IMG/VR virus record: IMGVR_UViG_3300009428_000004
Span: 10,467-74,466 of that record
DNA: 64,000 nucleotides
Source: a virus
Direction: 5' to 3' (one strand)
Shown: positions 10,170 to 61,901 of the stretch, one piece after another
How the letters are laid out: each line of letters begins with the position of its first letter
Numbering within the stretch: the stretch's first letter is position 1
The notes under the pieces: generated by a model
What the model was told of the DNA's origin: nothing
Database searches by the model: none
Seen by the model: only the letters and a program-made list of their open reading frames with translations
Program-made: the position numbers and the translations under genes

Positions 10170-10577
10170 TCATGCCGCAATCCCAACCTTATTAAAACGA
10201 ATGTACTCAGTACGGTCGCCTTCGGGCATCATGACATATGACTCAGTGTAGGTCTCGTGGTTTCTGTTGGCTATGTATAACCCATAACCATTTCTCTGAA
10301 GAATGTAAGGTACTTCCCACTCCTCGCAAACAACACTATCATCCTCTTCAAGATGACAATGTAATAGGTACTCTTCAGACCCCTCATCACTATACTCAAT
10401 CAGACGAGTAACGCTATTCTTCAGAGCGGAATACTCCACGCTAGAAATAACTCCAACGTTCTCAATAACGTAGGTCGAGCCGCCTTTGAACTTCCAGTAC
10501 TGAGGACATTCACCCTCACCGTCCCAATCATGGGCGCCATAGTTCTCACGATACTGCGTTTGAATTACTAGTTTCAT
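10170..10577 (-). CDS. Phage hypothetical protein
   Basis: TQYRENYGAHDWDGEGECPQYWKFKGG. Confidence 0.65.
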   Translation of the reverse strand: MKLVIQTQYRENYGAHDWDGEGECPQYWKFKGGSTYVIENVGVISSVEYSALKNSVTRLIEYSDEGSEEYLLHCHLEEDDSVVCEEWEVPYILQRNGYGLYIANRNHETYTESYVMMPEGDRTEYIRFNKVGIAA

Positions 10578-30999: not shown

Positions 31000-32142
31000 T
31001 TAATCCTCTAAAATATCTGCAATTTTATGCGCTAGTTTTCTAAACCACATATCGTCATGACCACGAGTTGTTTCTGCGGCGGTACCCAATCGAATACCAC
31101 TTGTCTCTACAAAAGAGCGTGGATCATTTGGAACACCGTTCTTGTTTACAGTAATACCATTTTCTTCTAGCAAGTCTGCGGCTTCACGACCACTGTACTT
31201 ACTATCACTTAAATCCATTAGGATAATATGGCTGTCAGTGCCGCCTGTCTGCACAGGCATATCACGCTGTCTAAACACATCACACATAGCCTTAGCGTTG
31301 CGTACAACGTCTTTGCTGTACTGCTTAAACTCTAGTGTATCTGCTTCAATAAAGGACTGTGCTTTGGCCGCAATGATGTGCATCAACGGACCGCCTTGTG
31401 TGCCTGGAAAGATAGCACTATTAATCTTGCGAGTGAGTTCTTCATTGTTCCATAGGATGATACCACCTCTTGGTCCACGTAATGTTTTGTGGGTTGTAGA
31501 TGTTACAACATCTGCGTAAGGCAAAGGATTATCATATACACCACCAGCGATTAGTCCCGAATAGTGAGCCATATCAACTACAAGATATGCGCCTACAGAA
31601 TCAGCAATATCTCTAAAACCTTTCCAGTCGATCTGTCTTGGGTATGCGCTTGCACCAGCAACAATCACTTTAGGTTTATGAAGTTCTGCCAACATTTGAA
31701 CTTGATCCATGTTAATATAACCATTCTCTTCAACGCCATAAGCATAACAGTCATAAATCTTACCGGAAATATTAGGTGCGCTACCGTGTGACAAGTGTCC
31801 ACCACTTGCTAGATCCATGCCTAATAGTTTATCGCCTGGTTTCAGTAGTGCTTGGTAAACTGCTGTGTTTGCATTTGCACCTGAGTGTGGTTGTACGTTA
31901 GCAAAGTTTGCTCCATATAATCTACACAGTGTATCAATAGCAAGTTGTTCAATCTCATCTGCGTGATCACATCCGTTGTAGTAACGCTTTCCAGGATAGC
32001 CTTCAGCATATTTGTTAGTAAAGATACTGCCTGATAAGTCCATCACAGCTTGGCTTGCAAAGTTTTCACTAGCAATAAGCTCAACAGTACTATCCTGGCG
32101 ATGTTTTTCATCATCCAGAATATTTAGTATTCTATAATCCAT
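31000..32142 (-). CDS. glyA: Serine hydroxymethyltransferase
   Basis: ELIASENF, NKYAEGYPGKRYY, NVQPHSG, GGHLSHG, DMAH, TSTTHKTLRGPRGG, FPGTQGGP, SGIRLGT. Confidence 0.97.
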   Translation of the reverse strand: MDYRILNILDDEKHRQDSTVELIASENFASQAVMDLSGSIFTNKYAEGYPGKRYYNGCDHADEIEQLAIDTLCRLYGANFANVQPHSGANANTAVYQALLKPGDKLLGMDLASGGHLSHGSAPNISGKIYDCYAYGVEENGYINMDQVQMLAELHKPKVIVAGASAYPRQIDWKGFRDIADSVGAYLVVDMAHYSGLIAGGVYDNPLPYADVVTSTTHKTLRGPRGGIILWNNEELTRKINSAIFPGTQGGPLMHIIAAKAQSFIEADTLEFKQYSKDVVRNAKAMCDVFRQRDMPVQTGGTDSHIILMDLSDSKYSGREAADLLEENGITVNKNGVPNDPRSFVETSGIRLGTAAETTRGHDDMWFRKLAHKIADILED

Positions 32143-36487: not shown

Positions 36488-37375
36488 TTAGACTGCCATC
36501 ATTGCTTTGATAGCACTCATTGGTTTATATCCCTCTAACTGGAAGTCAGAGACGTCCAAATCTAGTACTTCATCTAGTGAAGTAAACTTTGGCATACGTA
36601 GTGAAGGTAGGTTTTGCGGAATGCGCTTTAGTTGTTCGCTCACTGCTTCATAGTGTGTATTGTATATATGTACATCGCCAACCGTATGGACGAAATCACC
36701 GACTTGTAGACCAGTTATTTTCGCTATAATGTGTGTCAATAAAGCATAGCTTGCGATGTTAAAGGGTACACCTAAAAACATATCTGCGCTTCTCTGATAC
36801 ATTTGACAACTCAGTTTTCCATTGTTGACGTAGAACTGCGACATAGTGTGACAAGGAGGTAAAGCCATCTGGTCGATCTGATTAGGATTCCATGCACTTA
36901 GAATTAATCTACGACTGTCCGGATTTGTTTTTATCTCATTGATGAGCCACGTGATCTGGTCTGTCCCTTGAAGATGCGGCGCACTATTGTACATTGAGCC
37001 GTTGAAATTTCTCCATTGAAAGCCGTAAACTGGACCAAGCCCTTTGTGCATGTAGTCATTGTGATAGCCTAAAGCTACACCTTGATTATCAGCATTAGCT
37101 GTCCATATAGTACTACGGTCATATAACTCTTTCCTATCTTCTCCGAACGTAATCTCTGCTAGTCTACGCTCATCGGTACTGCCTTCTAAGAACCACAGTA
37201 GTTCACCTACTACAGACTTCCAAGCCAACTTCTTAGTTGTAACAGCTGGAAACCCTCGTCTCAGGTCATACCTCATCTGATAACCAAAAATACTTTTAGT
37301 ACCAGTTCCCGTTCGGTCCATACGCTCATCACCGTTGTCCATAATGTCTTGCATAGCTTCTAAGTATTGCTTCAC
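36488..37375 (-). CDS. thyA: Thymidylate synthase
   Basis: RTGTGT, ELLWFLEG, LGPVYGFQWR, ALPPCH, YQRSADMFLGVPFNIASY, HIYNTH. Confidence 0.97.
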   Translation of the reverse strand: MKQYLEAMQDIMDNGDERMDRTGTGTKSIFGYQMRYDLRRGFPAVTTKKLAWKSVVGELLWFLEGSTDERRLAEITFGEDRKELYDRSTIWTANADNQGVALGYHNDYMHKGLGPVYGFQWRNFNGSMYNSAPHLQGTDQITWLINEIKTNPDSRRLILSAWNPNQIDQMALPPCHTMSQFYVNNGKLSCQMYQRSADMFLGVPFNIASYALLTHIIAKITGLQVGDFVHTVGDVHIYNTHYEAVSEQLKRIPQNLPSLRMPKFTSLDEVLDLDVSDFQLEGYKPMSAIKAMMAV

Positions 37376-44388: not shown

Positions 44389-44718
44389 TCAGTTATCTAC
44401 TTTTGAACCGGCACGCCACTGATAGCAACTCCAGTACTTCGCTTTCCACTTGGGTCCTGGACTATCACATCCGTGTCTGGCTCTGAAACTTTTTCTTCTT
44501 GCCGGATCGTCTCTTTTGATCTCTGAATTAGGATCGCCAAAGGTTACCTTAACTACATTATCTTTATCGTTCTTAACGTAGACTCCGAACTTGCCCTTTG
44601 AACCAGTAGGTAATCGAAAAGGATCATTAAGTGTTACCTTACGTCCTTGATACTCACTTTCTTCTGTGACTAGCTCTTCGCAGTTACAAACGTCTAGGAA
44701 TTTTTGAAAAGACTTCAT
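44389..44718 (-). CDS. Small basic internal-protein candidate
   Basis: MKSFQKFL...EE N-terminus; KVTFGDP...RRKSFRARHGC...YWSCYQW. Confidence 0.65.
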   Translation of the reverse strand: MKSFQKFLDVCNCEELVTEESEYQGRKVTLNDPFRLPTGSKGKFGVYVKNDKDNVVKVTFGDPNSEIKRDDPARRKSFRARHGCDSPGPKWKAKYWSCYQWRAGSKVDN

Positions 44719-44948
44719 TCATCTTCTCCACTATTCATCATATATCGATGAGCAGTATTCAAATAATCTGCGGCTTTCGTGATCTTACTTTGAACCCATT
44801 CAGGCAAGTTCTCTTCATCTTCAAACATTCCAATCATATGCTCTGCATCTGAAAGTATGCCTTTAAGCTGAGTCTTAGCCATCTTGCCCTCGTTGTCGTA
44901 TTCTTTAGAGTTTTTATCTTCCGATACGAATGTCGCAAAAGTTTTCAT
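44715..44948 (-). CDS. Small internal-protein candidate
   Basis: MKTFATFVSE; EGKMAKTQL...LPEWVQSKITKAADYL. Confidence 0.65.
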   Translation of the reverse strand: MKTFATFVSEDKNSKEYDNEGKMAKTQLKGILSDAEHMIGMFEDEENLPEWVQSKITKAADYLNTAHRYMMNSGEDE

Positions 44949-44952
44949 CTTT

Positions 44953-45843
44953 TTATCCTAAAAGTTTTTGAAGTGTAGCAGGACCAGCGACACCATCTGG
45001 AGTCAGTCCACTTTTTGTTTGATACTCTTTGATAGCTCTTTTGGTACCTGGACCAAATATTCCATCTGCTGTCAAGCCTAGTTTTGCTTGAACTGCTTTG
45101 ACTGTATCGTTATTATCACCTATTGATATTGTCACATATTCAACAGATCCCGTTTTCTTAGATGATTTCTTAAGTACAGGCTTCTTACCAGTTAGTAATT
45201 CCATTGCACTCTCATAGCGACTAGTGCGATCAGCAAGACCGATATCACCACCGTTAATCTTTTTAGTCATCTTAACTATATCGCATTGGTCTGCGATAGC
45301 GTTTAACTTAGATGTTTTCCAAAACCAGCAAGCCGACTCGATAGCGCCCTTTTCAGTGGCTACGTATGCGGCTGCCTTCTCAGCAGTCATCTTAACTGTT
45401 TTACCAAACTTGGTATAATTCTCACGACCAGTAAGTTGCTTTAGTCCACGACCTCTGAACAACCAACCGTCACCAGATTTTGTGTTGCCCATTTTATACT
45501 TACGGAACTCGTCCATGTATACGTAGTTAGCGATCTTCTCTGGGTTACGTGCGTACTCTTTTGCATTACGCTTAGTTCCACCAGTACCAAAATACCGACC
45601 AAACACTCGCTTGAGTGCATCTTCGCTATAGTTTAAATTCTCTTCTAACGATCTAAAATTATTAGACTCATGGGCACACTGTGCTATGAATCCTGCTATT
45701 CTTTCAGGCGTGTTAATTTCATACTTGGGAAATATTTCCACAATAGCATCATACCACATGTCTACCTTATCATTACCAGGTATCATCTGGGCTAGCATTT
45801 CTTTCGTGAGTGCGCTATCACTCTTGTTCTTTTTCCAAAACAT
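44953..45843 (-). CDS. Endolysin: GH19 lysozyme/chitinase-like domain plus peptidoglycan-binding domain
   Basis: FIAQCAHES, LEENLNYS, FRGRGLKQLTGRENY, TKKINGG; C-terminal ADGIFGPGT..AIKEYQ..SGLTPDGVAGPAT. Confidence 0.92.
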   Translation of the reverse strand: MFWKKNKSDSALTKEMLAQMIPGNDKVDMWYDAIVEIFPKYEINTPERIAGFIAQCAHESNNFRSLEENLNYSEDALKRVFGRYFGTGGTKRNAKEYARNPEKIANYVYMDEFRKYKMGNTKSGDGWLFRGRGLKQLTGRENYTKFGKTVKMTAEKAAAYVATEKGAIESACWFWKTSKLNAIADQCDIVKMTKKINGGDIGLADRTSRYESAMELLTGKKPVLKKSSKKTGSVEYVTISIGDNNDTVKAVQAKLGLTADGIFGPGTKRAIKEYQTKSGLTPDGVAGPATLQKLLG

Positions 45844-46274
45844 TATTCGTTTATCCCTTTTGTAAAAGTTTTACTGAAGCTGTAGACGTGCTTCAACAGT
45901 TCCTTCACCTTAACATTTGACTGCATAACATCTATACTGCCACCAACATTCTTAGCCGCTAACCATCTATGGTGTCCATCAATTATATAGTTGTCTGAAC
46001 TAACAATGAGAGGCTTAGCCTTACCCAAAGTTTTAATGTTAGATATCTTATCGACAATTTTGTCTACATTGAAATCACTTTGCGTGGCTTTTAATTTTGT
46101 AGCCTTAACGCTCTTCTTCTGAACTCGCACGCCATTCTTCTTAAGATGCACTATCAACTCATCATAGTCCTTAGACCTGACTTGCGGCATCTTATCTCTC
46201 TTTATTCCGAGAGTGTCTTTAGCATCAGGTCTTTCGACCTTCAACTCAGCGATATATGTTCTAAACTTCTTCAT
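45843..46274 (-). CDS. ParB/Srx-like domain protein
   Basis: LKATQSDF, PLIVSSDNYIIDGHHRWLAA; N-terminus MKKFRTYIAE. Confidence 0.75.
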   Translation of the reverse strand: MKKFRTYIAELKVERPDAKDTLGIKRDKMPQVRSKDYDELIVHLKKNGVRVQKKSVKATKLKATQSDFNVDKIVDKISNIKTLGKAKPLIVSSDNYIIDGHHRWLAAKNVGGSIDVMQSNVKVKELLKHVYSFSKTFTKGINE

Positions 46275-49200
46275 ACTTTAATTACTTTATCTGATGTGCC
46301 AAAGTTTTTCTTACGCATGATAGTCTTGTTAACTACTTCATACTCGTCTTTATCTTTATTATAGTTGATTACGATAGGCAGATTCAAGTCAGCTTGCATG
46401 TCTTTTAATACAGCTTCACTATCTGGATTCTGTCTGATCTCTACTGCTTTTCTCTTAGCAATTTTCTTAAACACTTTTTGCAACTCTGCCACAGTGATTG
46501 CCGGCTTGTTACGTGAATCGTTCATACGATCTGCAAAGTGTCTAGTGAATTCGATATCGATTTTGAATTTAGCAAGTAGTCGATCACCAAACTTCTCTAG
46601 GTCTTGCAACTGCTTCTGCGTAACGTCTTCACTGAACATCTCATCAAATGATTCGTTAATACTTTGTCCAGGAGTATCTTTCTTGTAACGCTTAGTAACT
46701 TTATCAGTACCTTTGTCTCCAGCTCCACCCTCTTCGGTTACCATCTTCGCTAATAGCTTAGAGTCAACGTTTTTGTAGCTTCTAGCGATCTGTGCGGCGT
46801 AGTAACCTACGTCATGTCGCATACTGCCTTTTGGTCCAGTAGTCTCTTTTTTCTTTCTAGAGATTAAATCTTTTAGTGTTTTAAGTGCGTGTTGGTATTG
46901 TGTTTTATATAGCTTTAGACCTAACTTATCTTTGATCATCTCGGTTGGACTTTTCTCCATAAATAGATTTTCAAAGGATTCATCTACACTTTCTTTCGGT
47001 ACACAATTAGGAACTAGCTTGCCGTTTTTCTTCTTCATGCCTTTTTGCTCATGAGAGTCCCAACAAGGGTCGTCTTCTTTAATTGATTTGCCTTCGCTGT
47101 CGTATCCTGGCTTGCCAGCTTTCTCTTTCTTAGAGATAGCAATTGCGGCTCTTTGTGCAGGAGATACTGCGCCTTCTTCTAGATCAACTTCTTCTTTACG
47201 TACTTTAGCGGCAAGGTCTGCGTCAGCTTTACCCCATGTACCAGATGATTTAGTAATGAAAGAGTTAACACGTGCAAAGCCCCATTGTTGAGGAGTAGTA
47301 CCAGGTCTGTGACCAGTTCTCCATGCGGCAATACCTCTGTCATAAACTTTCTTTAGAACACTCAATGGCATTCCAGACTTCTCTGCTTTCTTTTTTAAAC
47401 CTTCATTACCCTTCTCTTCGTCTAGTAATACTTGATTAAAGATGTCATTAGAGGTCTCTTCGATGAAAGATATCAGATCAGCATCACAATCGAACTCTTC
47501 ATTTCTGGTCTCGGGTCTGTTTATTGAACGAACTTTCTTACGTAATTCACGTGTCAGTAAACCGTCCATCTCACGCTCATGCTCTCGACTCAGATTATTT
47601 CGTTCATCTTTGTGGTGCTTCTTTAGAGTCTTTTCTGCATCAGTATTGATAGCTATCTCTTCTAATTCTTGAGCTTCTGGAGTCTTTTTCTTGAATGCAC
47701 GAAATCTAGCGTCTAATTTTATTTTACCGTCTTTCTTAAACATCTGATGAAATCTTTGCACTTTAGGAGATTCGAACTCTTCATCGAACTGTTGATTTAC
47801 TACAAACTCTTCAAAAGTCTCGTTTACTTTACCGTATGTCTCGCACGGAGTTTTACCACATCCACAGTTTTTTTGCTCTTCAACAGGCTTCTCATGAGTG
47901 TATCCCATTTTCTTCATACGAAGATGATCTTCTTCTTTATCAGCTTTGTAACTTTTTCCAGTCTTTGGGTCATACATCATATGAGGCTCGAACGCTTCAC
48001 CATACATTTGATCATATTTTTTAGTGTGCTTCGATGTCTTAGTTTTAGCCTGTGCATCGCCAGGAGCTGGCTCATATGCGGCAGGATTATCGTCATTCAT
48101 TTCAGCGCCCTTCTTGAAATGTGCGTCACGTTTTACTTTAGTTGACTTAGCAAGACCTTTGTGATACACTGCAGGCTGTGTGCCTTTACGATCAGCAATA
48201 TCTTTATCTTGACCAACACTTGGAGCTTCAAATAGTCTTTCGAATTGCTCGTTAAACTCCTCATTCTTGCTCTTGCTGTTTAATCTAGCTAGGTCTGCTT
48301 TACGCACACTAGGAAGGATCTTCTTAGCAATCTTATCGATAGCTGCCTTCTTCTTAGAAACTCTCTTGTCAATCATCATCTTTTCTGAGGGAGAAAGTGA
48401 TGCATACTTTTCGCCTTTCTTACCAGCGATCTTCTTACGAATAATCTTGATAGCGGCCTTTCTCGCACGAGACTTCAGCATAGTCATAGTTGCGGCTTTT
48501 TTAGACAGACGCTTACGTGCGGCGGCAATCTTGTTTTTATACTTACGCATTACAATGCCACGATTACGGCGTTGCTGTACTGTTAGAACTGCTTCGTCTA
48601 GTTCCATCTCTTCAGCGATCTTTAATCCACCACGAACCAAATCGTAGATGTCTTCTGCATCTCTCTGTAATTTCTTAGGTAGTCCAGTTGTGAACTTCTT
48701 CATGTCGCCTTGAGATGCCAATAATCTCATTTTAGATGCAGACATGCCCGAAACGTCATCGGCATCTGGATCACGATCACCAGCAGATACAACTTCAATG
48801 TTATCAAACTTGTAGTCTTTACCGTTATATTTATTGAGTAGTTCGTCAAATTGCTTGATTCTGTCTGAACCTACAACCAAGATGACTTTAGAGTACTTTG
48901 ACTGTAGCTCTTGCATGATTTGGATAATAGTCTTGGATTTAGACTTCTCGATCACATTGTTGCCGAATGCTTTCTTGGCAAGCATGATCTTATCGTCATA
49001 CGCCAAAGGATTCTTTTTAGCATCCTGTGTATGAGATATGTAAACTTTTGGGACTGCGGAAGCTTTACGTGCAACAGCTTTAATCTTGTTGACTAGCTTC
49101 TCATGTCCAACAGTGATGGGATTCATTCTGCCCCATCCAAGAACTACAGTCTTATCGACCGCTTCGTCTAGAGTGGGATTGATATCAATAGTGTTCTTTA

Positions 49201-49291
49201 CTAAAACTTCGTTTTCTTTATCTAACTTAGCTTTAGCCTTTTTCTTGACAACCTTCTTCTCAACAGGTTTAGTGTCTTCTATATCGTCCAT
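46271..49291 (-). CDS. Large modular protein: N-terminal cytidylyltransferase-like (HIGH) domain plus multiple internal-protein modules
   Basis: GWGRMNPITVGHEKL, VVGSDR, SAGDRDPD, MSASKMR; later VYDRGIAAW...QWGFARVNSF, CW...KNGKLVPNCVP, FTRHFADRMND. Confidence 0.8.
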   Translation of the reverse strand: MDDIEDTKPVEKKVVKKKAKAKLDKENEVLVKNTIDINPTLDEAVDKTVVLGWGRMNPITVGHEKLVNKIKAVARKASAVPKVYISHTQDAKKNPLAYDDKIMLAKKAFGNNVIEKSKSKTIIQIMQELQSKYSKVILVVGSDRIKQFDELLNKYNGKDYKFDNIEVVSAGDRDPDADDVSGMSASKMRLLASQGDMKKFTTGLPKKLQRDAEDIYDLVRGGLKIAEEMELDEAVLTVQQRRNRGIVMRKYKNKIAAARKRLSKKAATMTMLKSRARKAAIKIIRKKIAGKKGEKYASLSPSEKMMIDKRVSKKKAAIDKIAKKILPSVRKADLARLNSKSKNEEFNEQFERLFEAPSVGQDKDIADRKGTQPAVYHKGLAKSTKVKRDAHFKKGAEMNDDNPAAYEPAPGDAQAKTKTSKHTKKYDQMYGEAFEPHMMYDPKTGKSYKADKEEDHLRMKKMGYTHEKPVEEQKNCGCGKTPCETYGKVNETFEEFVVNQQFDEEFESPKVQRFHQMFKKDGKIKLDARFRAFKKKTPEAQELEEIAINTDAEKTLKKHHKDERNNLSREHEREMDGLLTRELRKKVRSINRPETRNEEFDCDADLISFIEETSNDIFNQVLLDEEKGNEGLKKKAEKSGMPLSVLKKVYDRGIAAWRTGHRPGTTPQQWGFARVNSFITKSSGTWGKADADLAAKVRKEEVDLEEGAVSPAQRAAIAISKKEKAGKPGYDSEGKSIKEDDPCWDSHEQKGMKKKNGKLVPNCVPKESVDESFENLFMEKSPTEMIKDKLGLKLYKTQYQHALKTLKDLISRKKKETTGPKGSMRHDVGYYAAQIARSYKNVDSKLLAKMVTEEGGAGDKGTDKVTKRYKKDTPGQSINESFDEMFSEDVTQKQLQDLEKFGDRLLAKFKIDIEFTRHFADRMNDSRNKPAITVAELQKVFKKIAKRKAVEIRQNPDSEAVLKDMQADLNLPIVINYNKDKDEYEVVNKTIMRKKNFGTSDKVIKV

Positions 49292-49376
49292 TTTTATCCT
49301 CTTATCGTAGGTTTACCGTAGTCTAACTACAAATGATATTGTAATAGTCCACTAACAAGTGCTAGTGAACTATCTT

Positions 49377-49384
49377 TATTTATA
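49377..49384 (-). promoter_or_regulatory. Late promoter with structured ~85-nt leader
   Basis: TATAAATA then hairpin ATAGTTCACTA/TAGTGGACTAT. Confidence 0.75.
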
Positions 49385-49395
49385 ATATATGGTTG

Positions 49396-49899
49396 CTATG
49401 AATCTGTAGTTGTCGGTGACATATGCTGATTATAAACATCTCTCAACGTTCTAGCATCTTCTTCTGCGGCATCAGCGTGAGCCTTAGCTTCTTCTAATGC
49501 GATATTGGCTGCCAATAGTCTAGCCTCAGCCATTCTAACATCTTCTTCCATACGTTGCAACATACGTGCCATATCTTTGGCTTCTTGAATCTTTGCCGCT
49601 TCAACGACAGGATCAACCATAGGCTGTATCTCAGCAAAAACTTCAGATAGAAGTGGATCGTCCTGAGGCTCTGGTATATCAATCAACTCTTCTGAGAATT
49701 CTGGGTGTAATGGATGCTCTGACACCTCAAACTCATAAGCGACATCTTCAGCTTCCATGTCTTCTTCAATCTTCTTGAGAGTGATAAATTCTTGAAGTTG
49801 GGCAATTAGATGAGACTTAACAAGTCTTCTATCCAATTCAATACCAATCGTTCTTCCATATGATTCTAGATCAGACTTGCTCATTGATTCGAATTCCAT
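49396..49899 (-). CDS. Acidic coiled-coil protein
   Basis: KSDLESYGRTIGIELDRR N-terminal motif; C-terminal coiled coil. Confidence 0.6.
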   Translation of the reverse strand: MEFESMSKSDLESYGRTIGIELDRRLVKSHLIAQLQEFITLKKIEEDMEAEDVAYEFEVSEHPLHPEFSEELIDIPEPQDDPLLSEVFAEIQPMVDPVVEAAKIQEAKDMARMLQRMEEDVRMAEARLLAANIALEEAKAHADAAEEDARTLRDVYNQHMSPTTTDS

Positions 49900-49902
49900 A
49901 TT

Positions 49903-50085
49903 CTACTTCTCCGACTTCATGAATGTCCAGATACCGTATGCTAATCCAGCCCAGGCTGCGATCTTCACGATACCACCAAATAGAATGATTGCTATGCAAC
50001 CAGCTACAATAACACCAGCGTCTAAGCTAGTTCTTTCTAAAAATCTTTCTTTTAACCAATTCATAATTATCTCCTTTAAATGCAA
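49903..50085 (-). CDS. Small two-TM membrane protein
   Basis: RFLERTSLDAGVIVAG...GLAYGIWTFMKSE; late promoter at 50127-50134. Confidence 0.6.
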   Translation of the reverse strand: MHLKEIIMNWLKERFLERTSLDAGVIVAGCIAIILFGGIVKIAAWAGLAYGIWTFMKSEK

Positions 50086-50164
50086 AAGCAGGCATTAAGC
50101 CCGCTTTATTAGTTGACTCGTACTATTATTTATAATAGCACGAATATGATGTCAAGTGAATTTA

Positions 50165-50329
50165 TTAGTCCTGCATCATAACTCGCTTGGCTTCTTCATG
50201 CATTCCCATCTGACTGAGTTGGGCTGCGGCTCTCGCACGACCAACACGCTCCGTAGACTTGATCCACGCTCTACCAAAAAATCGTAGAGACGCACAGACT
50301 GAACAATAAGTGGCTGTTAAAGTACTCAT
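50165..50329 (-). CDS. 54-aa protein (not in ORF track)
   Basis: MSTLTATYCSVCASLRFFGRAWIKSTERVGRARAAAQLSQMGMHEEAKRVMMQD; ATGA overlap with the DUF1127 gene. Confidence 0.6.
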   Translation of the reverse strand: MSTLTATYCSVCASLRFFGRAWIKSTERVGRARAAAQLSQMGMHEEAKRVMMQD

Positions 50330-50583
50330 ATGTCCAATATTCCTTCTGGCATTTTATCGTATAAAGGAACTTTTTTACCATTCATGCGTTCTATGATATC
50401 ATCATAATGCTTATTAGCTATGTAATGTATATCACCTCTGCAAAGTCCAATGTCATTCAAGTCTTTATCTGAAAGTCTTGACAATTCTTTTACAGTATCT
50501 CTGGCTGCCCAGTGTGCGTTAAATCTAACTCTAATGCCTTTAGCAACTCTAATGAATTTTTCAATCACAACATTTCTCCTCAT
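50326..50583 (-). CDS. DUF1127 (YjiS-like) small protein
   Basis: RDTVKELSRLSDKDLNDIGLCRGDI. Confidence 0.85.
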   Translation of the reverse strand: MRRNVVIEKFIRVAKGIRVRFNAHWAARDTVKELSRLSDKDLNDIGLCRGDIHYIANKHYDDIIERMNGKKVPLYDKMPEGILDI

Positions 50584-50680
50584 ATTTGTGCTGTAGCCCT
50601 TTGACTACACTATTATTTATGAGAGAAATGTGTATTTTAGCTTTGCAAGTATAGTATACTCGCCATGCACGTGGTGAATT

Positions 50681-51913
50681 CTACTTCTGCCAGCCTTTGA
50701 TGTACTCTGAATTGAAGTTGGCGTTACTGAACTGCAATCTATCTACCAGCTTTACTGCGTTCTTGCCCATACGATCAATAGCAACGAAGCCTTCTTGCTC
50801 AGTCACTTTGTATCCGTCTGCCGTTTTCAAGAATGTGCCAACGTTCTTAGCTCTATCAAGTTTACGTATGATAGTCAACTTAGCCTCAACAATCAAATTG
50901 TATAGCTCGAATAGCGCAACGATTTGGCTCTTATCAGTATTGGAAAAGTATGATAGTATCTCTGTACGTTTAGCGGTCTTCTTTTCTTTACCCTTTTCAG
51001 ACTTAAGCTTATCAATCTCTTTCTGGTAGTATGCATAGATGAAGTCCATAAGCTCACTGACAAATGATGCAGGATCTTTGATCTTTTCACCAGCTCGTAC
51101 TTTCACATTAACAAACGTCTTAACTCTAGTGAGAAGTTCTTCGTTCTCTGTGATTCCGTCGAAGGTAGACTTTTTAATAGTGTTGAATTTCTTGCCAGCT
51201 TGAGATAGAAGTTTTGTTACTGCATCAGTTTCTTTCTGTGTCATAGTGGCATCACCACTCATGTCTTTGTAGATAGCGTCTACCGACCAGACGCCTGTCG
51301 ATTTTTTGAGATTGCTTGCGATCTCTTTTCCAAAACTTGCTGACATTGATTCAAAAGATTTACCTCTGTATTCAGTGTGCCAAACCACACCGATCTCGGA
51401 TCTGAGGATTTGTGAAGCAAGCTTGCTTTTCGCTGGTATCGCATAAACAATGGTATTAGGATGGAAAGTAATATACGATTCTCCATCAACACTAACCTTT
51501 TTGATATCCTTTTTCGCATATAAGAAATCACCCTGTATCACCCCCTTAATATTCAATGCTGGCAAGTTCTTTAACGCCAACTTCATTTTTATATTCAAAT
51601 CACCCTTTGCGATATCATCATCGATATCTTTATTAGTCTTGTATACTTTAGGATTCTTATTAAAGATACCCTTCTTAGCAACAAAGAACTTGCCATCAGT
51701 CGGATCAATACCAGCAAATACTGCTGGTGCTCCATCCCACTTTACAGTCACATTGACCTTAGCTTTAGATTTACCAGCCAACATATCTCGCAATGCTCTT
51801 AGGTAGTTGATAGACTCCCTAGCACCATCGACACCTGCGTTCAGCAGATTATCTTCGAGGTGTTCCATATGAGTATTCTTGTCTTCAGTCAAAAATGACG
51901 ATAAGCGTATCAT
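50681..51913 (-). CDS. Conserved T4-like protein with ligase/covalent nucleotidyltransferase-like motifs (DUF6267-like)
   Basis: NTHMEHLED, VTVKWDGAPA, IQGDFLY, EGFVAID, AVKLVDR; N-terminus MIRLSSFLTE. Confidence 0.7.
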   Translation of the reverse strand: MIRLSSFLTEDKNTHMEHLEDNLLNAGVDGARESINYLRALRDMLAGKSKAKVNVTVKWDGAPAVFAGIDPTDGKFFVAKKGIFNKNPKVYKTNKDIDDDIAKGDLNIKMKLALKNLPALNIKGVIQGDFLYAKKDIKKVSVDGESYITFHPNTIVYAIPAKSKLASQILRSEIGVVWHTEYRGKSFESMSASFGKEIASNLKKSTGVWSVDAIYKDMSGDATMTQKETDAVTKLLSQAGKKFNTIKKSTFDGITENEELLTRVKTFVNVKVRAGEKIKDPASFVSELMDFIYAYYQKEIDKLKSEKGKEKKTAKRTEILSYFSNTDKSQIVALFELYNLIVEAKLTIIRKLDRAKNVGTFLKTADGYKVTEQEGFVAIDRMGKNAVKLVDRLQFSNANFNSEYIKGWQK

Positions 51914-51914
51914 G

Positions 51915-52718
51915 TTATACTCCAAATAACTTTTTTATGTCTTCGGGATTATCAAGGCTATACTTAGATTTGATATTTGTTTTTAATCTACCTTGACATC
52001 TATATCCAGCACCGACAACACGATAATCTTCGCCTTCAACTTTTCTCGCTTTACTTCCAGATGGTCCAAGTCTGAACTCGATATTCACAGAGCCTTTATA
52101 CTCAGGCACATCTAGCTTCAATGGATTACTGCCTAGATAAAACAGTCCTGCTTTACCAATCTGAATGTAGTACACATTCTTTCTATTGTATGCTTTTGCG
52201 ATAGTTCTTGCTGAATCAAAAGACTGAATGGTATTCATCTTCGCAAGATATCCAGCTTTCTGTGCCGCTGACCATGCTTCTTTTGTTACTGATCCAAATG
52301 GAATAGTATACGGAATCTTTTTATGTAATGCTAGTGGCTCTTGCTTACGAACGAAGTTGACCCAATCCTTTAGTGCCTTGTCTTGCTTCTTAGCCGCTTC
52401 TATAAAGAAGGGAATAGCGTCTTCGTCTACCGCATCGGGCTTGACTAGCGTGTGTGTCTTGTTTAACGTATCAATGCGAATAGAAGTACCACCCATTTGA
52501 GCGTTCTTATCCAGCTTGATTTCGATATTGAATTCTTTACCGTTATATAATGCTTCAATATCACCTGCGCCTTGGTTACTGTATCCTGCGCCTGGCTTAC
52601 TTCCAACATTTAGTCCTTCAATGCCCGCAGACTTCATCGCATCGAAAACTTTCTTCTCGTATGCTAGTCCCTTAGCGCCAACGCTTTCGGTAATAAAACT
52701 TTTAAATCTGACAGTCAT
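51915..52718 (-). CDS. PD-(D/E)XK nuclease-like protein
   Basis: GLAYEKKV...GDIEA...NIEIK; N-terminus MTVRFKSFITE. Confidence 0.6.
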   Translation of the reverse strand: MTVRFKSFITESVGAKGLAYEKKVFDAMKSAGIEGLNVGSKPGAGYSNQGAGDIEALYNGKEFNIEIKLDKNAQMGGTSIRIDTLNKTHTLVKPDAVDEDAIPFFIEAAKKQDKALKDWVNFVRKQEPLALHKKIPYTIPFGSVTKEAWSAAQKAGYLAKMNTIQSFDSARTIAKAYNRKNVYYIQIGKAGLFYLGSNPLKLDVPEYKGSVNIEFRLGPSGSKARKVEGEDYRVVGAGYRCQGRLKTNIKSKYSLDNPEDIKKLFGV

Positions 52719-53779
52719 TTTTTAACCTTAAATTTTGTATCGTTTGGATATTCACCAGCTTTAGAATTTCTCAACTCAATCACATAATCCTCAACGTCAT
52801 TGCTACACAATATAGTGATCTGCTTGGACGTTTTTGTAGGATACCTTATGCTATTAACTCGTATATTTTTAGATAGCTTATCCAACTTCGTTTTTCCTAA
52901 CCAGAAGACTTTCCATCCACTAGTTAATCGTCTCACATAGAAGTAGTTCATACCCCAGGCTCTGTTGAAAATCTTTTCGATTTCTCTTGCGTTAACTCTA
53001 GAGACTGAAAGCTTTGGTCTACCTATACTAGCAGTATTTATATTACCTCGTTCATCGAACCCCGATTGGACTTTATTCAAGTCTACGCCAAAAGTGTTTA
53101 AGAATGTAGCACCTTCAGAATCTGGCTGAAGATTTCCTTCTTTATCAAAGAGTGATGCGGCACCAGAGTACGAACTAAACGTATTGCCTTTAATATCTTT
53201 AAGTGAGATGTACCAAGTATTTCTTTGAGAATCAGTGAGAATGATGTCTCCAATAATAGCACCCAAATCTGCAATGGGAACGCCTTCTTTCTTAGTAGCA
53301 CCACGTCTCTGCGTAGCACTCACTATCTCTGAACTAGCAAATGGAGCGTGTGATTCGTTCATCATGGTAACTACTTTAGCTATCTCAGAGTTGCCTCTGG
53401 TCTTAAAGTAATCGTCTAGATTTGTCACTGTGCGTGTTTCAAACCTTTCGCCAGCATTCGCACCACGAGCAATGATTATATCAAACATTTGCCTATCAAA
53501 GATGAAAGAGTAACTAGGAAACTTAGAACTGTTTGGAGATATTTCATTGTACTTGATCTGCGTAATCTTAGGGTCTTGTCTTAGCTTATTACTCAGATGT
53601 GCGATACACGCTTTACTTGTATCTAGTTCTTTGTTTATGAGATTTAACCTGTACTCTCGATAGCGTTTATCATTAGAACCTGGTTTGCCTTTTGGAAACC
53701 GAGCGTTAAGCTCATAGTTCTTATTTTTTACCATAGAGTTCAGATTCTCTCCAAGTTTTTGATATACTTCTGCGCTCAT
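52715..53779 (-). CDS. Restriction-endonuclease-like hypothetical protein
   Basis: GERFE...GDIILTD...YISLK. Confidence 0.5.
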   Translation of the reverse strand: MSAEVYQKLGENLNSMVKNKNYELNARFPKGKPGSNDKRYREYRLNLINKELDTSKACIAHLSNKLRQDPKITQIKYNEISPNSSKFPSYSFIFDRQMFDIIIARGANAGERFETRTVTNLDDYFKTRGNSEIAKVVTMMNESHAPFASSEIVSATQRRGATKKEGVPIADLGAIIGDIILTDSQRNTWYISLKDIKGNTFSSYSGAASLFDKEGNLQPDSEGATFLNTFGVDLNKVQSGFDERGNINTASIGRPKLSVSRVNAREIEKIFNRAWGMNYFYVRRLTSGWKVFWLGKTKLDKLSKNIRVNSIRYPTKTSKQITILCSNDVEDYVIELRNSKAGEYPNDTKFKVKK

Positions 53780-54602: not shown

Positions 54603-54715
54603 ATGTATACTCCTCTATAAACTATGTTACCATTATGCACTATTTTATGCAGTTTGTCAAGAAATATTTTTATTTTTATTTTTTTATGGAAACGCTTGAC
54701 TCAGGTTTTCTTTTG

Positions 54716-54727: not shown

Positions 54728-54888
54728 CATGGGTGCGTGTTAATGTGTAATACACAAGAGGCAAGTGTGATCGGTAATAATCAACTCACAGAAGGAATAG
54801 CATACGTTACATCTTTGATGTCCGTGGGGTTCGGGTATGCCACGCAAACTATCTAAAAAAAGGCAATCTTAACGACTGCCTTTTTTTT
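54728..54888 (+). ncRNA. Candidate late-expressed structured ncRNA
   Basis: Closing helix UGCGUG/CACGCA around hairpins UGUGU/ACACA, GUG-UGAU/AUCA-CAC and GCAUAC/GUAUGC; own promoter and terminator; no ORF. Confidence 0.7.
54855..54888. terminator. Bidirectional Rho-independent terminator
   Basis: AAAAAAAGGCA-ATCTTAACGAC-TGCCTTTTTTTT. Confidence 0.85.
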
Positions 54889-54891
54889 GGT

Positions 54892-55065
54892 TTAGATACC
54901 TTCAACTTCATCTAATCTACGCACCTCAAACTCTTCGATCAAACTACTTTCTTCGTTCAATCTCCTGGCTAGAACAGTAGCTTTACTTAATGTACCAGTA
55001 TAGTAGACTGTCATATCCTTTCTTTCTAACACCACATATTCATAACACGGCACTAGTGTCAGCAT
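54892..55065 (-). CDS. 57-aa protein (not in ORF track)
   Basis: MLTLVPCYEYVVLERKDMTVYYTGTLSKATVLARRLNEE... Confidence 0.5.
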   Translation of the reverse strand: MLTLVPCYEYVVLERKDMTVYYTGTLSKATVLARRLNEESSLIEEFEVRRLDEVEGI

Positions 55066-60749: not shown

Positions 60750-61901
60750 TTAGTCAGCACGTTCACCGTATCCGTAGTCTATAACTACAGGAAATCTAGG
60801 CACACCATCCGGAGTTAGACCGAAATATCGTAACGTTGCCCAACTAGGAGTATCGCCTGATTCCCAAAGCTCTTTAAGCTTGTCTTGCTTACCTCGAACT
60901 CCAGCTCCACAGTTGTCTCCATTAGGCATAATCAAAACAAACTTCTTGACATGTCCTGCCCAGTTGCCTTGACCTTCTAACATAGACGCAACTCTGAACT
61001 CTTCAGTTATAAACTCTTTACGCTTCAGTAGACCATTCGATCTTTTGTTTTCATAAGGAGTATTGTTACGCACCATTTGTCCTTCGTATCCATCCGTCGT
61101 GTAATTAGCGTATAATTCGTCTAACTCTTCTTGATCGACAGCTAAGGACGTTGGAACTTTCTTTAGATATAGGCAGTTGCTGTTGATAAGATGCTCGATA
61201 ACAGCAGATCGTATTGAGAACGAATCATTAGGCGACATACTATCTTGTAGATCATAGACGTGGTATTGCACCAAATTCTTAGCCTCTTCTATATCTTCAT
61301 CAGTAGACTTCATCTTTCTCACTAATGAGGTGATCTTATTAAAGTCATCTTTTAACTCGTGATTATATAGTTCGCCGTCTAAAGTCATAGTTGGATTAGC
61401 ATCTAAGATTGGCTTAACTGCTGACCAAATATGAGGACAACTCGTGATGGCTTTACCGGCACGTGTCCACAATCCACTAGAATTCGCAACACATCTAATG
61501 CCGTCCAATTTAGGCTGACTAAATCCAGATGTTACTTGAACCCTTTGCTTAGTGTAATCACCAGCAAGCATGGGCTTAAATTTCTCATAAGTGTCTACGA
61601 AGTTAATGTCTGTAAAGTACTCTTTCTCTGCCTTCTTGTCCCAATTTGCTTGAGCTTCTGATTCGGCTTGAGTACGTGATGTCGTGCCATTGATTTTACC
61701 GACATTTTTAGGTTTGCTGATTTTCCATCCAGAGGTAACTAACTTACCTTCTTGCAATCCAGCTATCGATCTAGTTCCAAACAGGTCTTCAGTATTTGTA
61801 GGAAAACCATGTTCAACTAGACCGACTTCTATAGTCAGTACTCGTATCTTACCTTTACTATCACGTTTGTAGAGGGTGGGTAGGCTTTGTACAGTTTGCA
61901 T
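60750..61901 (-). CDS. 30: ATP-dependent DNA ligase
   Basis: KPMLA, QPKLDGIRC, LDGELY, YHVYD, EGQMVR, YENKRS..LLKRK. Confidence 0.93.
   Translation of the reverse strand: MQTVQSLPTLYKRDSKGKIRVLTIEVGLVEHGFPTNTEDLFGTRSIAGLQEGKLVTSGWKISKPKNVGKINGTTSRTQAESEAQANWDKKAEKEYFTDINFVDTYEKFKPMLAGDYTKQRVQVTSGFSQPKLDGIRCVANSSGLWTRAGKAITSCPHIWSAVKPILDANPTMTLDGELYNHELKDDFNKITSLVRKMKSTDEDIEEAKNLVQYHVYDLQDSMSPNDSFSIRSAVIEHLINSNCLYLKKVPTSLAVDQEELDELYANYTTDGYEGQMVRNNTPYENKRSNGLLKRKEFITEEFRVASMLEGQGNWAGHVKKFVLIMPNGDNCGAGVRGKQDKLKELWESGDTPSWATLRYFGLTPDGVPRFPVVIDYGYGERAD

Follow-up and report, generated by a model that had tools for sequence, protein, structure and literature searches.

DUF6267, a predicted RNA-ligase-like nucleotidyltransferase of marine T4-like phages with a capsid-targeting-like N-terminus

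Two kinds of described proteins come closest to the one considered here. The first are the polynucleotide ligases of the covalent nucleotidyltransferase superfamily, such as NgrRnl, T4 Rnl2, REL1, T4 Rnl1, and the fungal and plant Trl1 enzymes; to our knowledge, all members of this superfamily characterised so far have the 5' ends of polynucleotides as their site of action. The second are the internal proteins of the T4 head, in which ten N-terminal residues are enough for packaging, with targeting governed by positions 4 and 7 and cleavage by positions 8 and 10, and which are poorly conserved (PMC9026906). We analysed a stretch of 64,000 nucleotides (positions 10,467 to 74,466 of the virus record IMGVR_UViG_3300009428_000004, hereafter the window), which is part of a 91-kb IMG/VR viral contig that is ~53% complete. 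It carries a gene of the DUF6267 family (50681-51913, minus strand) encoding a protein of 410 residues, a predicted ligase-superfamily nucleotidyltransferase. The best explanation, to which we give a probability of about 0.6, is that this protein is an RNA-ligase-like lysyl-nucleoside monophosphate (lysyl-NMP) nucleotidyltransferase, delivered in the virion with partner enzymes, the set serving either to heal and seal ends or to modify them.

The phage is T4-like, has a G+C content of ~40%, and carries almost all of its genes on the minus strand. Among the products of the window are a family B DNA polymerase, UvsX, a gp41-type helicase, ribonucleotide reductase, thymidylate synthase, and a canonical ATP-dependent DNA ligase. 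DUF6267 is among the commonest unexplained genes of marine T4-like phages: the family comprises 2676 clusters at 50% identity and >8000 at 90% identity (among the candidates scored), and it is found in 463 records of isolate phages, mostly Synechococcus and Prochlorococcus myoviruses, the closest isolate being Stenotrophomonas phage DLP_6 (53% identity). In prokaryote assemblies, scanned with a profile from a 12-sequence alignment, it is almost confined to metagenome bins, i.e. to mis-binned phage contigs. A literature search found no publication naming DUF6267.

Conserved motifs and predicted fold

The Pfam domain DUF6267 (PF19782, E 2e-112) covers the whole 410-residue protein, which is assigned to phrog_455, function unknown, in PHROGs. 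Its ATG at 51913 has a GGAG 6 nt upstream, and the TAA of the upstream orf267 lies one base before it, so the N-terminus, MIRLSSFLTE, is well defined; the alternative start, a TTG at 51925, falls within orf267 and is less likely. A preliminary description made from the letters alone had noticed the strings TVKWDG, QGDF, EGFV, and VKLVDR in this order and read them as the motif series of a ligase. All four are found in the open reading frame (ORF), in the order stated, at residues 56-61, 127-130, 374-377, and 387-392, and the strings quoted for comparison from the canonical ligase, KLDG, DGEL, and EGQM, are present at residues 131, 175, and 273 of that protein. Taken alone, KxDG is weak, with 4 occurrences in the 15,622 residues of the long minus-strand ORFs of the window; a lone KxDG being this common, the weight of the motif evidence lies in its conservation.

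That conservation is strict. Across 97 long-form representatives (35-54% identity to the query), 17 columns show no variation, including K58, D60, G61, K81, D129, N153, Y157, H179, E374, G375, and K388, and the same residues are still invariant when 30 short (298-residue) cyanophage forms are added. Motif I, K58-W-D60-G61 (51731-51742, minus strand), follows strand 54-58 of the model and holds the predicted nucleotidyl-accepting lysine; K58, D60, and G61 are all among the invariant positions. Candidate motif III, Q127-G128-D129 (51527-51535, minus strand), lies on strand 125-133, with D129 invariant and Q127 and G128 kept in at least 90% of the sequences. Candidate motifs IV and V, E374-G375-F-V and K388-L-V-D-R392 (together 50738-50794, minus strand), occupy two neighbouring strands (375-379 and 386-390), with E374, G375, and K388 invariant and R392 conserved in at least 90%. 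In the model, K58, D129, E374-G375, and K388 appear to lie where ligases have motifs I, III, IV, and V, which makes these segments candidate motifs; more broadly, the invariant K81, D129, Y157, E374-G375, and K388 have the order and strand placement of motifs Ia, III, IIIa, IV, and V, again as candidates.

The fold was assessed by comparing AlphaFold models with 48,161 chains of solved structures. The long-form model (predicted local distance difference test score, pLDDT, 93.6) has as its best matches NgrRnl (5cot; Z 8.4, root-mean-square deviation 3.6, 181 residues aligned), REL1 (1xdn; Z 7.9), and T4 Rnl2 (1s68; Z 7.5), followed by fungal Trl1 (Z 7.4) and an archaeal RNA ligase (Z 7.0). Below these RNA ligases, DNA ligases are mixed with helical-bundle noise that matches the inserted helical module described below. 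To remove this noise we folded a natural short form of the family, S-RIM8 gp183 (identical to L041). Its model, independent of the first (pLDDT 93.4), gives a list whose ranks 1-22 are all ligases of the superfamily, led by RNA ligases, with Z falling from 8.0 to 5.0. Among the predicted viral structures of BFVD, phage RNA ligases come just behind the DUF6267 family itself (Atu_ph07, E 5e-3). With the match list unanimous and the lysine motif invariant, the fold assignment is solid, and a nucleotidyltransferase fold of the ligase superfamily is very probable from the two models; the ligase-type fold of the preliminary description is supported. We also regard it as likely that DUF6267 is an active lysine nucleotidyltransferase.

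Two features of the modelled architecture stand out. The first is the absence of an OB (oligonucleotide/oligosaccharide-binding) domain, as the chain ends 20 residues past K388, in a tail modelled as a single helix (392-400). The capping-type enzyme that the preliminary description had offered as an alternative is less likely on this account, and also because no capping enzyme appears among the fold matches. The second is a helical module (residues 226-353; 50855-51238, minus strand) of six predicted helices, with N269 invariant, inserted between candidate motifs IIIa and IV and shorter in the 298-residue cyanophage forms. As modelled, DUF6267 is a very divergent, new architectural branch of the ligase superfamily, RNA-ligase-like and with a module inserted in the catalytic domain. 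We know of no other ligase family with a helical module between motifs IIIa and IV. Part of the insert (residues ~245-324) gives three matches to YqeY (1ng6, 8xjg, and 8xje; Z 6.3-6.9, ~76 residues aligned). YqeY proteins are relatives of the tRNA-binding C-terminal domain of GatB, which is only a lead to tRNA binding, since helical bundles match easily.

Capsid-targeting-like peptide and partner enzymes

Codons 1-10 (51884-51913, minus strand) encode a T4-type capsid-targeting-like peptide, MIRLSSFLTE, that ends in an L-x-E site of the prohead-protease type. T4 IPII and IPIII begin with MKTYQEFIAE and IPI with MKTFKEF; the peptide of the window is identical to MKTYQEFIAE at positions 1, 7, and 10, with a conservative Leu for Ile at position 8, and fits the T4-type targeting pattern at F7, L8, and E10. 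Residues 1-10 are disordered in the model, as expected of a propeptide. Other members of the family begin with MKSFKQFLTE, MKTFNAFLAE, or MKTFAEFLTE, and the DUF6267 protein of DLP_6 with MMKFTQFLAE. We counted such tags with a relaxed pattern at the N-termini of DUF6267 and of its two partners, a transferase and a kinase, taking the ORFs of this contig as background. The pattern fits 30 of 51 DUF6267 N-termini, 16 of 34 transferases, and 5 of 9 kinases, vs 8 of the 146 contig ORFs. The capsid-targeting-like start suggested in the preliminary description is therefore found both in this protein, which resembles the T4 peptide, and in the family, through those 30 N-termini. As the T4-type peptide is present at the family level, we lean towards the DUF6267 protein being packaged in the phage head, with injection as a probable consequence.

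The recurrent partner of DUF6267 is a nucleotidyltransferase with a HIGH motif. In the window it forms part of orf1006 (46271-49291, minus strand), a protein of 1006 residues with the transferase at ~47-230 (motifs GRMNPITVGH and SASKMR, i.e. TxGH ... SASKMR), DUF5824 at 634-692, and a C-terminal domain at 890-1006; it is annotated with Pfam CTP_transf_like and DUF5824 and with phrog_3041 'cytidyltransferase' and phrog_455. The phrog_455 profile itself joins DUF6267 to the 'cytidyltransferase', and domains of orf1006 are fused to DUF6267, in both orders, in the proteins P0132, P0244, P0255, P0159, and P0173 and also in S-PM2. The transferase is the next gene to DUF6267 in all 25 short-form cyanophage loci. 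In 45 further loci, many with the downstream flank missing, it lies downstream of DUF6267 and in the same orientation in 27. Its nearest named relatives are NadD (E 1e-4), archaeal nicotinamide mononucleotide adenylyltransferase (NMNAT; E 7e-4), and, in the PDB, NadR (E 0.37), all far below trusted cut-offs, so the label 'NMNAT-like' is only a lead. At least one partner is tagged in 25 of the 29 DUF6267-transferase pairs. Strict complementarity of the tags was considered and rejected, as the pairs divide into 9 with both proteins tagged, 11 with a tag on DUF6267 alone, 5 with one on the transferase alone, and 4 with none.

Indirect experimental support for packaging comes from one phage. Mass spectrometry of purified S-CREM2 particles detected the 'cytidylyltransferase' ORF154, with the authors' caution that contamination is possible (PMC10665884). 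This protein begins with MKNFSSFLTE, identical to MIRLSSFLTE at 7 of 10 positions. The DUF6267 protein of S-CREM2 is a short form without a tag and is not in the virion table (PMC10665884); ORF160, a virion protein of 297 residues, was checked as a candidate and is not a DUF6267 protein. Two genes downstream of ORF154, ORF156 (L273:6013-6726) is a Pol-beta-type nucleotidyltransferase (NTP_transf_2, E 3e-4) that was also detected in the virion proteome. The only assembly of an isolate, rather than a metagenome-assembled genome, with DUF6267 is that of Nonlabens xiamenensis strain 1Q3 (locus L263, NZ_RMVE01000006.1), where a transferase with the HIGH motif and a tag (MRFLDFIKEA) comes next after the gene; this contig of 188 kb may represent a T4-like phage, or a prophage, present in the culture.

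A P-loop kinase joins the pair in part of the family. That of the present contig, P0273 (234 residues; contig bases 2998-3702, minus strand, outside the window; locus L122:1297-1998), belongs to the Zeta_toxin/AAA_33 families, lies 57 kb from the DUF6267 gene, and has the capsid-targeting-like N-terminus MLTFENYLKE. Its nearest solved relatives are adenylate kinases, with a weak match to a PHROG polynucleotide kinase family. It is 62% identical to the kinase domain joined to DUF6267 in P0125, a protein that may be two adjacent genes read through, since its junction keeps an internal M-G-K-T-F-T-D-F-I-T-E. Homologous kinases lie inside the DUF6267-transferase cluster in 8 of 45 loci, and none was found in the four isolate genomes tested, which marks the kinase as a lineage-specific accessory. 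The kinase link favours a ligase role, as it parallels Pnkp/Rnl and Trl1, in which a 5'-OH is phosphorylated before sealing. The HIGH-type partner, having no place in known healing-and-sealing pathways, keeps an NAD-linked or end-adenylylating function open.

Gene neighbourhood and transcription signals

DUF6267 is the third gene of an overlapping run that opens with orf354 (52715-53779, minus strand; phrog_8438, function unknown) and continues with orf267 (51915-52718, minus strand), whose start overlaps orf354 and whose N-terminus, MTVRFKSFITE, is capsid-targeting-like. Both proteins hold D ... (E/S)-x-K strings like those of PD-(D/E)xK nucleases (GDIEA ... IEIKLD in orf267, GDIIL ... ISLKD in orf354). 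For orf267, a possible nuclease of this type, there is no Pfam match; its nearest named cluster in the ESM Atlas has the restriction-enzyme family R-HinP1I in 14% of its members (score 0.92), which is the sole nuclease lead. By BLAST, neither orf267 nor orf354 resembles the genes that precede DUF6267 in MED4-213, S-RIM8, or DLP_6.

Further along the strand, two more genes encode capsid-targeting-like N-termini. The product of orf143 (45843-46274, minus strand; MKKFRTYIAE) has a weak ParB/Srx-like domain, with sub-threshold Pfam matches to ParB_N, ParBc_2, and DUF1015 and with E values of 1e-6 to 1e-8 for ParB-like PHROG families. The protein shares homology with the C-terminus of the 'cytidyltransferase' protein of DLP_6, which carries a DGHHR motif (L001:11290-11889), and so the ParB-like domain also appears to travel with the module. 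The gene orf77 (44715-44948, minus strand; MKTFATFVSE) encodes a small internal-protein candidate with homologues in the same cluster in 3 other loci. Half of the 8 contig ORFs that fit the tag pattern, namely orf77, orf143, DUF6267, and orf267, are in this 44.7-52.7 kb cluster, and with four tagged genes within 8 kb (44715-52718) the region looks like a gene cluster for internal head proteins. Amid the tagged genes lies an endolysin-like gene (44953-45843; Glyco_hydro_19-like and PG_binding_1). An 85-residue ORF just downstream of DUF6267 (50326-50583, minus strand) matches DUF1127 (Pfam, E 2e-12), a small bacterial domain that is unusual in phages. Elsewhere in the window, serine hydroxymethyltransferase (SHMT; E 2e-149) and a ThyA-type thymidylate synthase (31000-32142 and 36488-37375, minus strand), together with ribonucleotide reductase, suggest a phage-run supply of folate and deoxythymidine monophosphate.

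T4-late-promoter-like octamers, TATAAATA, are found inside orf354, 317 nt before orf267 (53035-53042, minus strand), and in the intergenic gap before orf1006 (49377-49384, minus strand). The window holds 12 matches to this octamer, 11 of them on the coding strand, vs 4.85 expected. The best sigma-70-type match of the region, TTGACA-17-CATAAT (54632-54660, minus strand), comes after a terminator-like hairpin near 54855-54900.

Proposed role, alternatives and comparison with known systems

Taken together, the results make DUF6267 a probable lysine-nucleotidylating enzyme, active on polynucleotide ends and arriving in the host along with the phage DNA. The motifs and their invariance, the predicted fold, the gene linkage and fusions, and the resemblance of the tag are what we observe; catalysis, substrate, packaging of this particular protein, and biological role are what we infer. 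In the proposed mechanism, the protein would enter the prohead, lose its first residues by cleavage after Glu10, and pass into the cell together with the DNA. The lysine of the invariant KxDG, Lys58, would take AMP from ATP, the presumed donor, and pass it to the 5'-phosphate end of a polynucleotide, more likely RNA than DNA, after which attack by a 3'-OH would seal the break. It would work with the HIGH-motif NMNAT-like nucleotidyltransferase, here the N-terminal domain of orf1006, joined in some lineages by the kinase, which is like adenylate or polynucleotide kinases; enzyme and partners would make up a kit, carried in the virion, that either heals and seals ends or modifies them. We put the chances that DUF6267 performs polynucleotide ligation at even. 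Only tentatively do we propose the wider view that it founds a new RNA-ligase-like family, with a helical module inside the catalytic domain, that is preloaded in the heads of marine T4-like phages with an NMNAT-like transferase, and sometimes a kinase, as an injected end-repair or modification kit.

If this is true, the preloaded kit would act ahead of all phage gene expression, to counter, for instance, ribotoxins or nucleases of the host. An active ligase-type DUF6267 would add a new architectural branch to a well-studied enzyme superfamily and give a function to the DUF6267-'cytidyltransferase' gene pair, annotated blindly for twenty years. Delivery in the virion would place it among the few enzymes of nucleic-acid repair or modification that are injected, and would bear on how the abundant phages of the ocean get through the first minutes of an infection. 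New ligases also have their use as reagents.

Several results weigh against this interpretation. No ligase family of Pfam or NCBIfam matches the protein; in Pfam, searched up to E 0.1, PF01068, PF14743, PF09414, PF09511, and the capping-enzyme families all fail to match, and a PF09414 profile search of the whole contig gave nothing. The sequences of the PDB, searched with phmmer and with the alignment profile, returned only chance matches (Tdp1, eS8) and no ligase, and the named clusters of the ESM Atlas offered no named family. With hhalign, all probabilities were <1% against T4 Rnl2 alone, a 34-sequence Rnl2 alignment (0.13%), and a 74-sequence alignment of the window ligase family; the non-significant local alignments pair EGFV with EGYV of T4 Rnl2 or EGQM, and KLVDR with LLKRK of the window ligase, at chance level. 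A Z of ~8 is middling by the fold-search tool's own scale, and Foldseek against the PDB gave nothing below E 0.09, with carbonic anhydrases mixed among the ligases; such moderate Z and non-significant Foldseek values make DUF6267 a very remote member of the superfamily. Of the check by structure prediction and Foldseek proposed in the preliminary description, the ligase-type fold thus came from the models and the structural comparison, while the Foldseek search of the PDB was not significant.

Other points touch on delivery and partnership. The tag has Leu at position 4, which is Tyr or Phe in T4 and in most relatives. Transcription signals are mixed, as the strong sigma-70-type promoter, with no terminator between it and the operon, suggests early transcription of the operon as well. 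A PF03420 search for the prohead protease found none on the 91-kb fragment (~53% complete) nor in the controls, and is hence uninformative. The injection suggested by the preliminary description has on its side the tag at the family level and the tagged S-CREM2 partner found in virions; the DUF6267 protein itself is so far in no virion proteome. As a whole, the interpretation of that description is supported in part, and the roles it named, tRNA or RNA repair and the sealing of incoming DNA, are hypothetical. We know, finally, of no role for a HIGH-type nucleotidyltransferase in end healing.

The last point opens the way to another reading, unlikely in our view, in which DUF6267 would be a covalent nucleotidyltransferase but no strand sealer, and the kinase, the NMNAT-like transferase, and the KxDG enzyme would together handle an adenine dinucleotide cofactor. 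Either the AMP donor would be NAD+ made or recycled by the partner, or, in a 'capping-type' version, 5' ends would be adenylylated or capped without joining. A kinase combined with a HIGH transferase is the established layout of NadR, which, with NadD and archaeal NMNAT, is among the nearest named relatives of the partner, all of them far below cut-off; the P-loop kinase is nearest to adenylate kinases, and known repair systems offer no precedent for a ligase-like domain so tightly fused with a HIGH transferase. The NMNAT assignment is, however, itself sub-threshold, and DUF6267 has no domain Ia-like module for binding nicotinamide mononucleotide. Neither capping enzymes nor the adenylation domain of NAD+-dependent ligases rank above ATP-dependent RNA ligases in the fold search, and action on polynucleotide 5' ends is, as far as we know, common to all characterised members of the superfamily.

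Less probable still is a DNA ligase that seals nicks in phage replication, repair, or packaging, as the stand-in for T4 gp30 in marine T4-like phages. It would account for the absence of PF01068 from the three complete cyanomyovirus genomes tested (S-CREM2, S-RIM8, and MED4-213), all of which carry DUF6267, and DNA ligases take ranks 10-25 of the short-form fold search. RNA ligases rank first in that search, however, DUF6267 is without an OB or DNA-binding domain, and a capsid-targeting tag is a poor fit for a replication enzyme. Moreover, the window phage and DLP_6 each encode a canonical ATP-dependent DNA ligase together with DUF6267. That of the window (60750-61901, minus strand; Pfam DNA_ligase_A_M and DNA_ligase_OB_2; phrog_114), which serves here for comparison and is not part of the system, means that DUF6267 is not the only ligase of the phage and that the role is not vacant. 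As a simple gp30 replacement, DUF6267 does not hold for the window phage. A catalytically dead internal head protein, keeping an old ligase-like fold for a structural or DNA-condensing role, would suit the capsid-targeting-like peptide and the small tagged proteins orf77 and orf143 of the cluster, but is highly improbable, as the invariant K, D, G, D, E, G, and K are just the residues that a nucleotide pocket should have and are kept across 2676 clusters, the conservation of T4 internal proteins is poor (PMC9026906), and persistent fusion to an enzyme domain speaks against a passive role.

The RNA-ligase-like nucleotidyltransferase that we favour can be set beside several known systems. Canonical ATP-dependent DNA ligases (that of the window, T4 gp30, and the Chlorella virus ligase) belong to the same superfamily by fold (Z 5-6.3) and share the KxDG of motif I; unlike them, DUF6267 has no OB domain and no match to PF01068 or PF14743. 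The nick-sealing ATP-dependent RNA ligases Naegleria NgrRnl (Rnl5, 5cot), T4 Rnl2 (1s68, 2hvq), and Trypanosoma REL1 (1xdn) are the best matches of both models, with 170-185 residues aligned; Z for the long and the short form, respectively, is 8.4 and 8.0 with NgrRnl, 7.5 and 6.8 with T4 Rnl2, and 7.9 and 6.7 with REL1. They share with DUF6267 the order of a KxDG lysine, an acidic residue on a strand, and then EG and K on a pair of adjacent strands; like it they have no OB domain after motif V. Sequence or profile similarity to them is not detectable, and DUF6267 has neither the N-terminal domain of Rnl5 nor the C-terminal domain of Rnl2. In its motif V a single invariant lysine is followed by D-R, vs KxK in the Rnl2-type ligases, and unlike these it carries an N-terminal H-x-E-H motif in addition to the capsid-targeting-like peptide.

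T4 Rnl1 and the ligase domain of fungal and plant Trl1 (9do4, 6n0t, and 9r3w; Z 6.4-7.4) give the longest alignments, ~200 residues, and like DUF6267 they combine a nucleotidyltransferase domain with an all-helical module. This module is C-terminal in Rnl1 and Trl1 and inserted in DUF6267, and PF09511 gives no match. Trl1 is fused to a P-loop polynucleotide kinase; DUF6267 is likewise joined to a P-loop kinase in P0125 and has one as a neighbour in 8 loci. No 2H or phosphatase end-healing domain is seen near DUF6267, whose recurrent partner is the HIGH-type nucleotidyltransferase. With T4 IPI-IPIII and Alt, finally, DUF6267 has in common the N-terminal peptide of ten residues, M-x-x-[FY]-x-x-F-[IL]-x-E, and an origin in a cluster of similarly tagged genes. 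Unlike in these T4 proteins, the cargo behind the peptide would be a conserved predicted enzyme of ~400 residues, found across thousands of marine T4-like phages.

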